Below, in pieces: positions 6,938 through 12,396 of a stretch of DNA of 32,000 nt (its first letter is position 1; each line of letters begins with the position of its first letter). The notes beneath the pieces are model-generated. The model was not told the origin of the DNA. It saw only the letters and a list, made by a program, of their open reading frames with translations, and did not search any database. A program made the position numbers and the translations under genes. Source of the stretch: Promethearchaeota archaeon (GTDB taxonomy: Archaea > Asgardarchaeota > Lokiarchaeia > Sigyniarchaeales > Promethearchaeaceae); contig JAFGBS010000034.1 of NCBI GenBank assembly GCA_016933055.1, positions 120,001 to 152,000 on the forward strand, in the 5' to 3' direction.

Positions 6938-8008
6938 TTATTTACTAGAAGTGGTTTTCTTGGTAGATTTTTTCGATTTTGAAATTTTCATGCTCTCCGA
7001 TTTCGAGCTGGTCGATTTCTTTTTAGCAGTTTTTTTTGGTTTAGTCTCTTCTTTAGCAATTTCTTCTGCTAACTTTTCATCTTTGCCTAATTCCACTTTT
7101 TCTTCATGGTCATGATCGTGATCATGAGCTTTGGGTTTCTTGTAGGAGTGAATGAAATTCACAGTGTCAATGTCCAAGTTATTTTGAAGATCATAGGCTA
7201 CATAAAATTCTGTCATACCAATATTTTGCTGCAATCCAAAGAAATCAGGTGTTCCGATGTCCAATTTGTTTTCGGATTTATTATAGTCTAACTTAAATTT
7301 GTCTTCTTCGACCCCAGGAATCCGACGTGAGATATATGCGAACACTTTGTCCTCGAATTCATCAATTCGTTCAAGGGGTTTTAATCGATATTCCACTTTT
7401 CTTCCGGCAAGAGGATGATTAAAATCAACACGTATTCTTCCTTGGTCTACCGTGATTACGGTACCAGTTTTTCCAGTTTTCTCATTACGAAATTCCATCC
7501 CAAGTCGTGGTTTGTCCTTGGCTATTGCCATGAATTTCTTATATGACATTTTTTCGATATTTTTCGGATCTCGCTCTCCAAACGCATCCTTAGGGTCTAG
7601 AACCACCGTTTTCTCATCTCCATATTTTAGCTCACCCGATGCAAGCATTTCTCCAAGTTTATCGAAAATAACTCCGCTTTTTTCCCCTACTAATACTAAT
7701 TCTGGAGTGTAAAGATGGGACTTTTCAGGATCATAATTTGGTAATTTCTTTGCATCTTCTTCATTCGACACTTGAAAAGTCACAGTAGTTTTATCTGTTG
7801 CTGTTGGTACCGTTTTCCCAAGTAGATCGAGCTTAATAAGATCGCCTTTCTTCACAAGTTGCCCTATATATCCTATTTTCTTCTTAGAGGATTTATTCAC
7901 GGTTTCCTTTTTAGTGGTTTCTTTCTTCTTCTTATTCGATTCTTTCACTGATGATTTTTTTTCAGAATCATTGTTCTCTGTTTCTGTTGCCGTTTGTTTG
8001 CTAGACAT
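6938..8008 (-). CDS. Long-type archaeal FKBP peptidyl-prolyl isomerase (SlyD-like) with Lys-rich tails
   Basis: Motifs PKDAFGERD and RVDFNHPLAGRKVEY, the archaeal C-terminal extension, and HDHDHDH at 7126..7106. The start is placed at M15 of the track ORF (ATG 8008) because the longer start overlaps the divergent gene. Confidence 0.9.
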   Translation of the reverse strand: MSSKQTATETENNDSEKKSSVKESNKKKKETTKKETVNKSSKKKIGYIGQLVKKGDLIKLDLLGKTVPTATDKTTVTFQVSNEEDAKKLPNYDPEKSHLYTPELVLVGEKSGVIFDKLGEMLASGELKYGDEKTVVLDPKDAFGERDPKNIEKMSYKKFMAIAKDKPRLGMEFRNEKTGKTGTVITVDQGRIRVDFNHPLAGRKVEYRLKPLERIDEFEDKVFAYISRRIPGVEEDKFKLDYNKSENKLDIGTPDFFGLQQNIGMTEFYVAYDLQNNLDIDTVNFIHSYKKPKAHDHDHDHEEKVELGKDEKLAEEIAKEETKPKKTAKKKSTSSKSESMKISKSKKSTKKTTSSK

Positions 8009-8105
8009 TATCAATTCCCAGCTTAATGATGGATAATTCGTTTTATCCATGTTTAATAGATTTTTTGCTTTTAAAGCTTCAAGTTCATTTTCTCATAAGA
8101 TTAAA

Positions 8106-9014
8106 ATGGGAATTCATCAAATCTTTTCTAGAGGTTTTAATGTGATTATATTTATTACCGCACAACCGACGCATTCGACGAAAAATCAAATCATTAACAC
8201 TTTTATGAATGCAAAAGTTCCTTACATAGTCTTAGATCCATCAATACCATGGTTCAAATTGCGCAAAAATTTTCAAAATGATGTATCAATTTGTTTATTA
8301 GCTCCCGACCATCCAAATGCATTTAAAATTTGTTCGTATTTACTGGCTAAAAATATTTATGTACTCAATCCACCCAGAACCACACTGTTGTGCAAACAGA
8401 GAATTGAAGTAAATATTCGATTGAATTCGATTCTCACCCAATTTAAAAAGGATAATCCCGTCTGTCCTATCCATATTCCTATGTCCCGCTATTATAAAAA
8501 AAAAGGATTGTTACTAACTCAAGTAAACGAAATTGATTTCCCGTTTGTGATAAAATATCCGATAAACCATTTAGGAATCCATCATGTGGAACTTATTCAA
8601 AATATGCAAGATCTCTCAACAAAAATACCGAAATTCTTCAATAAAAATGGTATTTACACTGAACAATATGTGGAAGCACAAGAATTGCTCATCAAGACTT
8701 ATCATTTAGGAGATACAACCATTACTCAACAAGAATCTCACCACCTAACGTTGGAAGCGGGTAATAAATTGAAGGAAATATTATTTGAGAGTAAAAATCA
8801 ACGGAAAACTATTGATACTCCTCTTATCTTAAAAAAATTTACAGAATTCATAGCAAAAGAAATGCCTATTACATTTTTTGGGTTAGATCTTTTACGTTCG
8901 TATGATGACCAATACTGGGTAATTGATTTTAATGATTTTCCTGGATCCCGTGGAATATTTAATGCAGGAGAGATTATTGCCAATTGCATAATCGATAAAA
9001 TAAAAGGAAATTAA
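8106..9014 (+). CDS. ATP-grasp enzyme, ITPK1 (inositol phosphate kinase)-like
   Basis: Motifs VLNP, FPFVIK, EQYV, LIKTYHLGD, FFGLDL and VIDFNDFPG. The ATP-grasp fold is confident; ITPK1 specificity is inferred. Start uncertain (ATG 8049 or 8106). Confidence 0.7.
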   Translation: MGIHQIFSRGFNVIIFITAQPTHSTKNQIINTFMNAKVPYIVLDPSIPWFKLRKNFQNDVSICLLAPDHPNAFKICSYLLAKNIYVLNPPRTTLLCKQRIEVNIRLNSILTQFKKDNPVCPIHIPMSRYYKKKGLLLTQVNEIDFPFVIKYPINHLGIHHVELIQNMQDLSTKIPKFFNKNGIYTEQYVEAQELLIKTYHLGDTTITQQESHHLTLEAGNKLKEILFESKNQRKTIDTPLILKKFTEFIAKEMPITFFGLDLLRSYDDQYWVIDFNDFPGSRGIFNAGEIIANCIIDKIKGN

Positions 9015-9130: not shown

Positions 9131-9604
9131 TTATTTTTTGGGTTTAGTTTCTTTATTCGTATTAGATTGAGGTTTTGGTTTTGGTGCGAGTTCTCTGAGC
9201 GGTGAGGGTCCAAGAGCGTTTATTTTTTCGAACATTGCCACCATCGTTTTTTGGAATTTTTGTCCTTCAGCAGCCGAACAATAGTGCATTTGTAACCGTT
9301 CGGACTCTAATCCCACAGAATCCATTACTTGTTGGAGGTATTTAACATTTCTACCACCATGTTTCGCTCCCGTTAGGTAATTACATTCGTGTTCATAACA
9401 TCCTACGACCGCAACACCATCTGCTCCTTTTCCGAATGCTCTCATGATCATGTCCGAAGACACTCGACCTGCACAGCTGACAAGAACCGGCCTAACAATG
9501 GTTGGATATTGCGCTCGAATAGTTCCCGCCATGTCTCCTGCCCCATAACCTCATTTCCAGCACATAAAAGCTACTATATGTAATTCCTTCTGAATTTGAG
9601 TCAT
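9131..9604 (-). CDS. mvhD: MvhD/VhuD [2Fe-2S] subunit, selenoprotein (Sec at codon 18; 157 aa)
   Basis: From ATG 9604: MTQIQKELHIVAFMCWK-UGA-GYGAGDMAGTIRAQYP..., continuing in frame into the 133-aa track ORF. The UGA at 9553-9551 aligns with the second Cys of FCNWCSFAGAD in the paralogue at 16756..17226. Confidence 0.93.
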
Positions 9605-9612
9605 TTTTGGTT

Positions 9613-9618
9613 ACCTCC
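9613..9618 (-). promoter_or_regulatory. Shine-Dalgarno-like site between hdrA(Sec) and mvhD(Sec)
   Basis: GGAGGT directly after the hdrA TAA and 8 nt before ATG 9604. This supports the upstream start and therefore read-through of the UGA. Confidence 0.7.
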
Positions 9619-11589
9619 TTACTCTGCTACTCGATATAGTAGATTATCGATTACAGCATTGAATTGGGAGCCACGTGAGTTTCGAACGGTGATGGCTTGA
9701 CTGGGACAAGTTTGTGCGCAGATTCCACAACTTCTGCATTTGACTTCGTCTACGACCGCAAACTTCTGTACGGGATCTAGTGCAATTGCGTCATATGGAC
9801 AATTTTCTACACACAAACCGCATTTTGAGCATCGTATTTCGTCTACAACGGCTTTTTCCATACGCATTCGGTATTCTCCCGGTCTCATGATGATATTTGC
9901 AGATGATGCTGCTCCTTTCGCCTGCATAATCGTTTCAGCAATCGATTTCGGACCTTGAGATGCCCCTGCTAAAGATATTCCTACAACATTTGTATCCACT
10001 GGATTAAGTCGAGAATGATATTCTTTGAAGAATCCATCGGGACTACGTTCCAGTTTGAGTTTATCATTGAGGATACCAATCCCTTGGGCTGGTTCCATAG
10101 CGGAGGATAATACAACAAGATCGAATTCGTGTTCTTTCATTTCTGAGCAATCTTGCAGCATATCTTGCATGTAAACCTTGAGATTATGCGTTTCAGCGTC
10201 TTCTTGTATACGTGGGATAGATGCCTTGACGAATTTTACCCCATATTTTCTGGATTCAAGGTAATATTCTTCATAGGCTTTCCCCCCTGCTCGTATATCA
10301 ATGAACGCTACTATGACGTCAATGTTGGGATCATGTTGCTTGATTAGTTTCGTGTTCTTAATGGAGATTAAGCAACACACACCTGAACTGCAATGTCTAT
10401 TTCGTTTGAGATCACGCGAGCCTACACACTGGATGAACAGTATCTTATGAGGGTGTTTCCCATCGGATGGTCGAACGATATTCCCATAAGTTGGTCCATT
10501 TGGAGCGAGAATTCGTTCCAGTTCTAGTTGGGTTATAACATTGGGATATTTACCGTATCCAAGATACCCCTCTTGTCGGAATTCGTCCCAACCTGTGGCA
10601 ACGATTATTGTACCGACTTTCAGTTTCTTAATCTTATCTGTATCATCGAAATTTATGGCATTCAGTTCGCATTCGTCCATACATAATCCACAACGGATGC
10701 ATTTGGTCATATCTATCTGAGCAACCATCGGAACTGCTTGGGCAAATGATACATAGATTGCTTTTCTCGGACCGAGATTCTGGTCAAATTCGGAAGCACT
10801 ATAAGCAGGACAGACTTCTTCACATGCCCTGCATCCATTACAATCGCTATTAGTGTATTTTGCGTGTTGTAACACTTCCACTTCGAAGTTTCCGACGAAA
10901 CCCGAGACACTTTGCACTTCGGTAAGTGTCATGAGGTGAATGTTTTTATTTCGATTCACATCCAGCATCAACGGACCCAAGATTCAAATACTGCAGTCGT
11001 CAGTAGGAAAGGTTCGATCTAACATGGCCATTTTTCCACCTATCGTCGCAGCTTTTTCGACTAGATAAACTTCATATTCCGAAGCTAAGTCTAGTGCTGC
11101 TTGCATTCCTCCAATCCCTCCACCTATTACAAGCGCTTTTTTTTCGACAGGGAACGTTTTTTCAGGAATTGGTTCCAAGAACATTGATCGCGCAACTCCG
11201 GCACGAATGAGTTCTTCGGCTTTGAGTTGGGCTTTATCTTTTTCCTTCATATGAACAAAGGAGACATGCTCTCGGATATTCACGAACTCCAGATACGATG
11301 GATCTAATCCCGAATCTTCCAAAACCGCCCTAAATACAGGTTGATGGGTTTTTGGCGTGCAAGCGGCCACTATGATCCGATTCAGCTTATGTTCCTCAAC
11401 AGCTTCTTTTATTAAATCCGCTCCGGAGGTAGTACATAAACTAATATTATCGGTGGAATGCACCACGTTAGGTAGTTTTCCTGAGTATTCAGCGAGTTTC
11501 TCTGTGTCTAGTGTACCAGCTATGTTAACACCGCACCGGCAAACAAAACACCCAATACGAATCTCTTTTTCAGCGTTTTCTGCTGCCAT
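9619..11589 (-). CDS. hdrA: Heterodisulfide reductase subunit A, selenoprotein (Sec at codon 202; 656 aa)
   Basis: The two track ORFs (10984..11589 and 9619..10980) are in one frame, joined by TGA ATC: FPTDDCSI-U-ILGPLM versus FPTMDCSA-C-ILTPKM in the Cys paralogue. The FAD motif GGGIGG, the QCVGSRD..CSSGVCC motif and four CxxCxxCxxxC motifs are present. Confidence 0.95.
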
Positions 11590-11739
11590 TTGAGTCCGTA
11601 CCAGTTTTTTGTTGTTGGTTGGTTACGTTTACTTCACACATCTGGGCTTAAAATATTTTTCTTCGGTTTTTCTTTAACTTTGGAAGTGAATTTCTATTTT
11701 TCCCGTGGTCTTAAAATCTTGGATATACCATTATCACCT

Positions 11740-12396
11740 ATGATTGATCATGGATTTACCCACAGTAAATTGAATCGATGGTTAGAACAAATTGTAAAAA
11801 AATATGACAGAGGGAGAATCACACCCAACCAACTAACCATATCAGCATTATTTCTTGGTTTGCTGGCATCAGGATTTGTCTATCTTAGCGGAATTTCCCC
11901 CATATCATGGGAAATTATCTATCTCGTGTTAGGGGAGTTTGCATTAGCAACTTCTTTTATCTTAGATGTTTTTGATGGGATATTAGCGCGTAATCGTAAT
12001 CCTACAGTATTTGGAGGGATATTAGATATTTTTTGCGATCGGACTGTTGAGATTTCCATTTTAATAGCTATCGTCTCAACAGCTCCCTCCTATCTCTTGT
12101 GGAGCGGGTTGTTTTCCCTCGCATCCATTGTGCTATGCATAACCATCTTTCTGTTAATGGGCTCAGTACAAACAGAGCGTATACCCGAAGAGAAAAAAGT
12201 GATTTTCTATACTCATGGTATAATGGAGAGGACGGAAACGGGGATTTTCCTGTTAGTTTTAATTGCAGTCCCATTTCCATTATTTCGCATGAGTATATTG
12301 TGGATCTTTTTCGGTTTGGTGCTTCTAACTGCTCTTCAACGTCTATATATTGCCTATAGAGTATTATCGAACTCCATACGTATAAAACATAAATAA
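11740..12396 (+). CDS. CDP-alcohol phosphatidyltransferase family protein
   Basis: Signature DVFDGILAR..GGILDIFCDR, TPNQLT and several TM segments. The start is moved to ATG 11740 because the upstream 50 codons span the divergent promoter. Confidence 0.92.
   Translation: MIDHGFTHSKLNRWLEQIVKKYDRGRITPNQLTISALFLGLLASGFVYLSGISPISWEIIYLVLGEFALATSFILDVFDGILARNRNPTVFGGILDIFCDRTVEISILIAIVSTAPSYLLWSGLFSLASIVLCITIFLLMGSVQTERIPEEKKVIFYTHGIMERTETGIFLLVLIAVPFPLFRMSILWIFFGLVLLTALQRLYIAYRVLSNSIRIKHK

Follow-up and report, generated by a model that had tools for sequence, protein, structure and literature searches.

A gene in a 32,000-nucleotide stretch of the genome of a Promethearchaeota archaeon (assembly GCA_016933055.1, contig JAFGBS010000034.1, positions 120,001 to 152,000; hereafter the window) encodes a protein whose placement in the ITPK1 branch of the ATP-grasp superfamily is supported by sequence comparisons. 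The protein is most likely a Mg-ATP kinase that would act on salvaged inositol or inositol phosphate, a reading to which we give a probability of about 0.5. Few inositol-phosphate kinases have been traced to Asgard archaea; ITPK1 is one of them, and is used as an argument for pre-eukaryotic inositol-phosphate chemistry. The window is C11:120001-152000 of its genome (G000), whose assembly totals 3.76 Mb in 36 contigs, with 91% completeness. The original prediction for this DNA, made from the sequence alone, had noted that ITPK1 homologues were known from Asgard archaea, and we confirmed this in the literature: Desfougeres et al. 2019 (PNAS; PMC6900528) described four Lokiarchaeum homologues, LcIKA-D, flanking inositol-phosphate-synthase genes, and later papers repeat the finding. 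ITPK1-like Asgard genes are thus already published, and the window gene is a divergent further member with an odd context.

The assignment of the protein to ITPK1 rather than to the RimK/LysX ligases, as originally proposed, was borne out by Pfam, by sequence searches of the PDB, by profile-profile comparison and by a phylogenetic tree; best placement with the ligases by profile and tree, the outcome named beforehand as contradicting it, did not occur. In Pfam, the protein scored above the cut-off for Ins134_P3_kin (PF05770; 26.1 bits, E 7.5e-6, cut-off 23) and below that for RimK (PF08443; 19.8 bits, cut-off 21). All 12 close relatives matched PF05770 (best E 5e-16), and 8 of the 12 also matched RimK (best 2e-6). 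The likeness to human ITPK1 exceeds chance: a phmmer search against all PDB chains returned human ITPK1 first (E 1e-5), with nothing else below 0.4, and a profile of the 12 closest relatives found ITPK1 of human (3e-11), potato (2e-9) and maize (6e-8) ahead of RimK (1e-7) and ArgX (1e-5). HHalign aligned the profile of the clade to which the window gene belongs (W, see below) with canonical ITPK1 at 99.3% (E 2e-20, score 143) and with RimK at 98.6% (E 8e-16, score 112). The N-terminal pre-ATP-grasp domain family PF17927 gave no Pfam match to the window protein at E up to 10; several canonical ITPK1 rows are also without such a match. The closest ESM Atlas cluster is a Promethearchaeota 'putative Ins(1,3,4)P3 5/6-kinase'.

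An exhaustive profile search over 1.84 billion representatives yielded 1005 proteins at E up to 0.001, 15 of them below 1e-30. The named near relatives are all proteins of Lokiarchaeota or Promethearchaeota metagenome-assembled genomes, labelled hypothetical, ATP-grasp or RimK-family. The distant matches include canonical ITPK1 proteins (Pfam 75-140 bits, most with PF17927), several of them named inositol-tetrakisphosphate 1-kinase; other matches are true RimK (135 bits) or intermediates. One match, P0037 (NCBI CAH6419041.1), is a canonical ITPK1 (PF05770 101 bits, with the N-terminal domain) on a 1.6-Mb contig labelled 'uncultured virus', which suggests a giant virus encoding an inositol-phosphate kinase.

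We built a tree of 54 rows (IQ-TREE; support given as UFBoot/SH-aLRT), in which the canonical rows had been confirmed by Pfam at 75-140 bits. Canonical ITPK1 was labelled K, and the Asgard types A, B, C, D, S and W, with W being that of the window gene. Groups K, B, A, S and W form a clade (98/91), and true RimK (100/100), Asgard types C and D, and the intermediates all fall outside it. Support for the inner nodes is 93/85 for K+B, 87/63 for A+(S+W), 100/99 for S+W and 100/100 for W. Hence canonical, eukaryote-type ITPK1 is sister to the B type, whose genes lie next to inositol-1-phosphate synthase (MIPS), and not to A/S/W. The W type is a distinct, fast-evolving subclade from one genus-level lineage of Loki-type Asgard archaea. 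The tree lends weak support to strict orthology between W and the A type, for which location beside the gene for an FKBP26-type prolyl isomerase is part of the argument.

The six ITPK1-type motif strings picked out in the original prediction were all found, in the proposed order, in the translated open reading frame (ORF), and a profile alignment agreed with their pairing to human ITPK1: FPFVIK/FPFICK, LIKTYHLGD/LYKVFVVGE, FFGLDLL/LFGIDII and VIDFNDFPG/VIDINAFPG (Table 1). VLNP lies within the stretch aligned by HHalign to the canonical ITPK1 family, and the LIKTY segment, mis-gapped in the single-sequence phmmer alignment, was corrected by the profile alignment. With eukaryotic ITPK1 (human 2Q7D/2QB5/2ODT; Entamoeba 1Z2N; plant ITPK1, ITPK4) the window protein shares the six motifs, their order and spacing, and identical counterparts of human H162, H167, K199, D281, D295, N297 and G301. 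It differs in its low overall identity (~16%), in the undetected PF17927 domain, in a counterpart of K59, and apparently one of R212, that is not basic, and in two additional conserved basic residues, Arg233 and Arg282.

Residues were compared in a MAFFT alignment that included every group and in a site table (10 rows for W), and checked with hmmsearch and HHalign. The ATP/Mg framework is intact, comprising Lys150, Lys197 (K199), Asp261 (D281), Asp274 (D295), Asn276 (N297) and Gly280 (G301); the columns of Asp261, Asp274 and Asn276 are invariant over every ITPK-like row, and neither Lys150, in the FPFVIK motif, nor the two histidines of the substrate loop, His155 and His159 in HLGIHH, vary within the W and S clades. 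The most conserved inositol-phosphate contacts of ITPK1 are H167, K199 and R212, with K18, K59, H162 and G301 less conserved (PMC6900528). H167 and K199 are matched in the window protein by His159 and Lys197, both invariant in W and S. Arg233 is conserved in Asgard types W, S, A and C and Arg282 in W, S and A; neither is conserved in canonical ITPK1. These two arginines may keep the pocket basic.

The surroundings of the gene were compared across 301 sampled genomes of the phylum, among them those of a sister family (f2) and a congener of the window organism (G234, 76% complete), and by locus scans that covered three loci on genome contigs and 12, mostly short, in metagenomes. A profile of the ITPK-like family matched 79 of the 301 genomes, concentrated in f2, where 67 of 69 genomes matched and usually carry three to four clustered copies, and in the genus of the window, where both genomes matched. 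In the window's family, the three remaining genera gave no ITPK-like profile match; there, FKBP26 lies in different surroundings, with no remnant of an ITPK-like gene. In f2 the gene order is FKBP26, D, C, B, MIPS, an MFS transporter and A, followed by UppP and an isochorismatase, with D and C being short ATP-grasp genes (for example, L026 3522-10283, L027, L028 and L037); in one f2 genus (L030), FKBP26 is followed by A only. At the W loci (the window, L035 of the congener, L038 and L039), FKBP26 directly and divergently adjoins a single ITPK-like gene, and at an S-clade locus (L036) the ITPK-like gene is followed by MvhD and HdrA, the same downstream order as in the window. The window genome has a single PF05770 match, and tblastn with B, C, D and MIPS proteins found no match in it. 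Based on the position of FKBP26 and the comparison of gene order, we conclude that the W/S gene is the positional counterpart of type A, in a cluster from which D, C, B, MIPS and the MFS transporter are missing. Two records in this comparison carry taxon labels that look unreliable: L037 (JBHLQY010000006.1), labelled Candidatus Thorarchaeota, holds the full Loki-type cluster with 50-77% identity to G071, and P0012, filed under Heimdallarchaeota, has exactly the sequence of the A-type protein encoded by G201, a genome from the same order as the window organism.

MIPS, detected with PF01658, is present in 284 of the 301 genomes; each of the five other genomes in the window's family has it. PF01658 gave no match in the window genome or in its congener, and PF07994 was not found in the window genome either. 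If the assemblies are taken as independent, the probability that incompleteness alone lies behind both absences is ~0.02, and a real loss of MIPS in the two genomes is probable. Within the family, the five genomes of other genera have MIPS and lack the ITPK-like gene, and the two genomes of the window's genus have the gene and lack MIPS; this complementary pattern amounts to a single evolutionary event. MIPS is present in the S-clade genome (G301), and two f2 genomes with a single A-type copy (G040, 100% complete, and G135, 98% complete) also gave no MIPS match. The window genome does have genes resembling archaetidylinositol phosphate synthase, at C17:548405-549043 and C5:61026-61598, which score 155 and 128 bits with NCBIfam NF040950. 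MIPS-bearing relatives score at the same level and none reaches the 180-bit cut-off, which seems too strict for Asgard archaea. A third, weaker paralogue (70 bits) is the CDP-alcohol phosphatidyltransferase encoded in the window downstream of the kinase gene; a functional link between the two is conjecture. A search for an inositol kinase of the TK2285 type found no chain so named among the matches of seven PfkB proteins that were checked in the genome, where the PDB label of TK2285 is itself uncertain. One of the seven, at C17:756400-757158 (L068), is an orphan PfkB-family kinase (Pfam 66 bits), for which no solved structure scored below E 1e-4. The remaining six resemble ribokinase, fructokinase-like, nucleoside, 2-keto-3-deoxygluconate (KDG) and hydroxymethylpyrimidine phosphate (HMP-P) kinases.

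We propose that the window protein would be a soluble three-domain ATP-grasp enzyme that holds Mg-ATP between its central and C-terminal domains and uses the gamma-phosphate to phosphorylate a small anionic polyol at one of its hydroxyls. The most likely substrate would be myo-inositol or one of the low inositol phosphates, with His155, His159, Lys197 and the Asgard-specific Arg233 and Arg282 holding it in place. Such a substrate is the most economical choice because of the role of the family, the positional counterpart (type A) in relatives, which sits in a cluster with MIPS, and the seeming retention of inositol-lipid enzymes, and it would come from salvage, not from glucose-6-phosphate, because no MIPS was found in the genome. 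The original prediction had extended to soluble inositol-phosphate synthesis. That part is not supported for this organism, given the lack of a MIPS match in the window genome and its congener, the absence of the MIPS-flanking paralogues, and apparent changes at two contact positions; nor is inositol phosphate synthesis from glucose-6-phosphate. Phosphorylation of inositol phosphates has been published for eukaryotic enzymes and, partially, for LcIKC, the only LcIK assayed in yeast, which partly restored inositol hexakisphosphate (IP6) in plc1-delta cells (PMC6900528).

Several results weigh against a kinase acting on inositol or its phosphates, the missing PF01658 match in both genomes of the genus among them. 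Kinase activity of W and S clade members is itself a prediction, and LcIKC is probably of another subtype, B, judging by an Arg near residue 155-156 (its Arg156). The Pfam margin is small, with the congener copy reaching 16.9 bits in a six-frame search compared with the 26.1 bits of the window protein. In structural comparison of the predicted model with VIA-align, LysX/ArgX (Z 19.9) ranks slightly above ITPK4 (Z 17.5) and ITPK1 (Z 17.4), the overall ranges being Z 18-20 for LysX/ArgX, synapsin and RimK and Z 16.5-17.5 for the ITPKs. The column of human K59, in an N-terminal region aligned by MAFFT only, has Ala, Ser or Thr in every one of the 10 W rows (Ala66 in the window protein), Arg in RimK, and Lys in almost all of the canonical rows and those of types A, B, C, D and S. 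Similarly, by hmmsearch and MAFFT the R212 column is Gln209/Glu210 in all 10 W rows; outside W, every A row and 10 of the 11 canonical rows have Arg or Lys there. HHalign instead reads E-S-N as an insertion of three residues and sets the canonical Arg opposite W position 213, where the window protein has His and 7 of the 10 W members have Arg. The counterpart of R212 is therefore ambiguous. Lastly, the gene evolves rapidly: its rate of amino-acid-changing substitution (dN) relative to the congener is 0.49, compared with 0.10-0.20 for its neighbours, that is, 2.5 to 4.5 times faster. Identity to the congener is 48% for the ITPK-like protein, 69-73% for FKBP26, 60% for a giant surface protein, and ~85% for HdrA and for an upstream protein of 367 residues.

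The changes in contact residues and the rate bring to mind an ITPK-fold kinase with a new, non-inositol small-molecule substrate, retuned after loss of MIPS and the paralogue cluster, which we regard as a possible but rather doubtful alternative. The W-specific replacements at K59 (Ala/Ser/Thr) and R212 (Gln/Glu), amino-acid evolution faster than that of all neighbours, a genome in which neither MIPS nor the B, C and D paralogues were found, and a gene without an operon partner are all consistent with it. However, His155, His159, Lys197, Arg233 and Arg282 are kept, and the pocket is probably still basic; the S clade, which comprises the nearest relatives, keeps the Lys of the K59 column and occurs in a MIPS-bearing genome; the HHalign pairing leaves most W members with an Arg three residues downstream of the R212 column; and no alternative substrate is pointed to by the context. 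We consider it unlikely that the W enzyme stands in for MIPS, phosphorylating salvaged myo-inositol (or trimming and re-phosphorylating scavenged inositol phosphates) so that inositol monophosphate would be made for the retained enzymes resembling archaetidylinositol phosphate synthase, with loss of the two basic contacts reflecting a less charged substrate. This idea draws on the complementarity of the gene and MIPS within the family and on the keeping of those synthase-like genes.

That the protein is a RimK/LysX-type ligase attaching glutamate or another amino acid to a protein or cofactor, its likeness to ITPK1 being one of shared fold only, is very unlikely. The sole NCBIfam matches are indeed to ligase families (RimK family, MptN and CofF), two relatives carry the NCBI name 'RimK family alpha-L-glutamate ligase', VIA-align ranks the ligases and synapsin above the ITPKs, and HHalign still pairs the W profile with RimK at 98.6%. 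Yet the NCBIfam matches score ~23 bits against cut-offs of 143 to 350 (TIGR00768, 23.7 bits against 143.4), the Pfam RimK match is below its cut-off, and true RimK is split off in the tree. The window protein has in common with RimK, LysX and ArgX the ATP and Mg ligand framework and the three-domain ATP-grasp fold (Z 18-20, root-mean-square deviation 3.1-4.2 Å over ~255-264 residues). It departs from them in Lys197, where RimK has Arg before the hairpin, in Asp274, where RimK has Glu, so that D-x-N-D-F-P-G takes the place of E-x-N-x-S-P-G, and in FESK, which has no Gly-Gly after it, whereas in the RimK profile F-x-S-N is followed by this acceptor motif. The Arg, the Glu and the Gly-Gly are all present in the RimK profile and in the window genome's own RimK, a separate, genuine gene located elsewhere in the genome (142 bits). 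The AlphaFold model of the window protein (mean pLDDT 80, pTM 0.79) has a three-domain ATP-grasp fold with an alpha/beta N-terminal domain whose alignment to chains of ITPK1 and LysX starts at about residue 10. Foldseek ranks human ITPK1 (2q7d) first, at E 8.8e-12, with RimK and ArgX within a factor of three in E-value; comparison of the predicted fold does not separate kinase from ligase. It is highly improbable that the gene is a decaying, functionless relic of a lost inositol cluster, even though it is the fastest-evolving gene of its neighbourhood and no longer has its pathway partners. Every W locus seen carries an intact ORF, and 76 columns are invariant over the 10 W sequences, with all catalytic residues among them. 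Silent-site divergence (dS) is saturated in pairs that include the window copy, leaving only dN and the dN/dS of one subclade usable; in that subclade, three closer W members (L035, L039 and L040), dN/dS is ~0.09, which indicates purifying selection. The gene is fast-evolving but constrained, and therefore not a pseudogene.

Relative to LcIKA-D, most likely the equivalents of sister-family types A to D, the window protein belongs to the same PF05770 superfamily branch and phylum, with the same ATP-grasp fold and conserved ATP/Mg site, and its sister-family counterpart lies in the same kind of MIPS-side cluster as that described in PMC6900528. It differs in falling into the W subclade, sister to S (W/S was not seen in the sister-family clusters), in being encoded by a single-copy gene with no MIPS found nearby or in the genome, and in its changed K59 and apparently changed R212 columns. 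The Asgard ITPK family is not uniform, with a separate S/W branch besides the MIPS-linked paralogues, and with one lineage in which there is a single, rapidly evolving copy and no MIPS gene was detected. If the W copy does act on inositol, a salvage route would be indicated; if it does not, this would be a caution against reading every Asgard PF05770 match as inositol-phosphate signalling. Either outcome would be useful for annotation and for the choice of archaeal enzymes to assay; the present case leaves the published picture unchanged.

Table 1. Features of the ITPK-like gene and its neighbours, in window coordinates.
Feature	Position	Strand	Basis or remark
FKBP26-type prolyl isomerase gene, divergent neighbour, synteny marker	6938..8050	-	Pfam FKBP26_IF, FKBP26_C
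ITPK-like ATP-grasp gene, W-clade member, protein P0001	8106..9014	+	302 aa plus TAA
N-terminal pre-ATP-grasp domain, ~residues 13-115	8142..8450	+	Secondary structure of model
LLAPDHP, Ala66 at human K59 column, inside N-terminal domain	8295-8315	+	Alignment, site table
VLNP, residues 86-89	8361-8372	+	Translated ORF
FPFVIK, residues 145-150, Lys150 = ATP lysine	8538-8555	+	Profile alignment to human ITPK1
HLGIHH, residues 155-160, His155 and His159 = human H162 and H167	8568-8585	+	Profile alignment
LIKTYHLGD, residues 195-203, Lys197 = human K199	8688-8714	+	Profile alignment
LIKTYHLGD, then hairpin QQESHH (Gln209, Glu210, His213) at place of ITPK1 R212	8688..8744	+	
FESK (counterpart of canonical FDSQ) and QRKTIDTP with Arg233	8784..8822	+	Alignments
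FFGLDLL, residues 257-263, Mg/ATP-site motif, Asp261 = D281	8874-8894	+	
VIDFNDFPGSRGI, residues 272-284, Mg/ATP-site motif: Asp274 = D295, Asn276 = N297, Gly280 = G301, Arg282	8919-8957	+	
MvhD and HdrA genes, convergent, each with an in-frame TGA; synteny markers, not part of the function	9131..11589	-	Pfam
CDP-alcohol phosphatidyltransferase, 2.6 kb downstream of the kinase gene	11590..12396	+	Pfam PF01066

The ITPK-like ORF is intact from either of two ATG codons, at 8049 and 8106, to its stop. Like the original prediction, we took 8106 as the start because homologues begin near residue 13 and because a start at 8049 would overlap the start codon of FKBP26; the residues added by the upstream ATG are without counterpart in homologues. 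FKBP26 and the ITPK-like gene diverge from a gap of 55 bp (8051-8105), which contains one near-palindromic TTTTAAAG (8069-8076), ~30 nt from both start codons, possibly a shared archaeal TATA box giving short-leader transcripts both ways. The GC content of the window DNA is low (34-41%), and Rfam at gathering thresholds gave no match anywhere in the window. The in-frame TGA of HdrA (9619-11589) lies at 10981-10983, in the context CSI-TGA-ILGP, and that of MvhD (9131-9604) in the context FMCWK-TGA-GYGAGD, upstream of the called start; judged from these contexts, both codons would fit selenocysteine.

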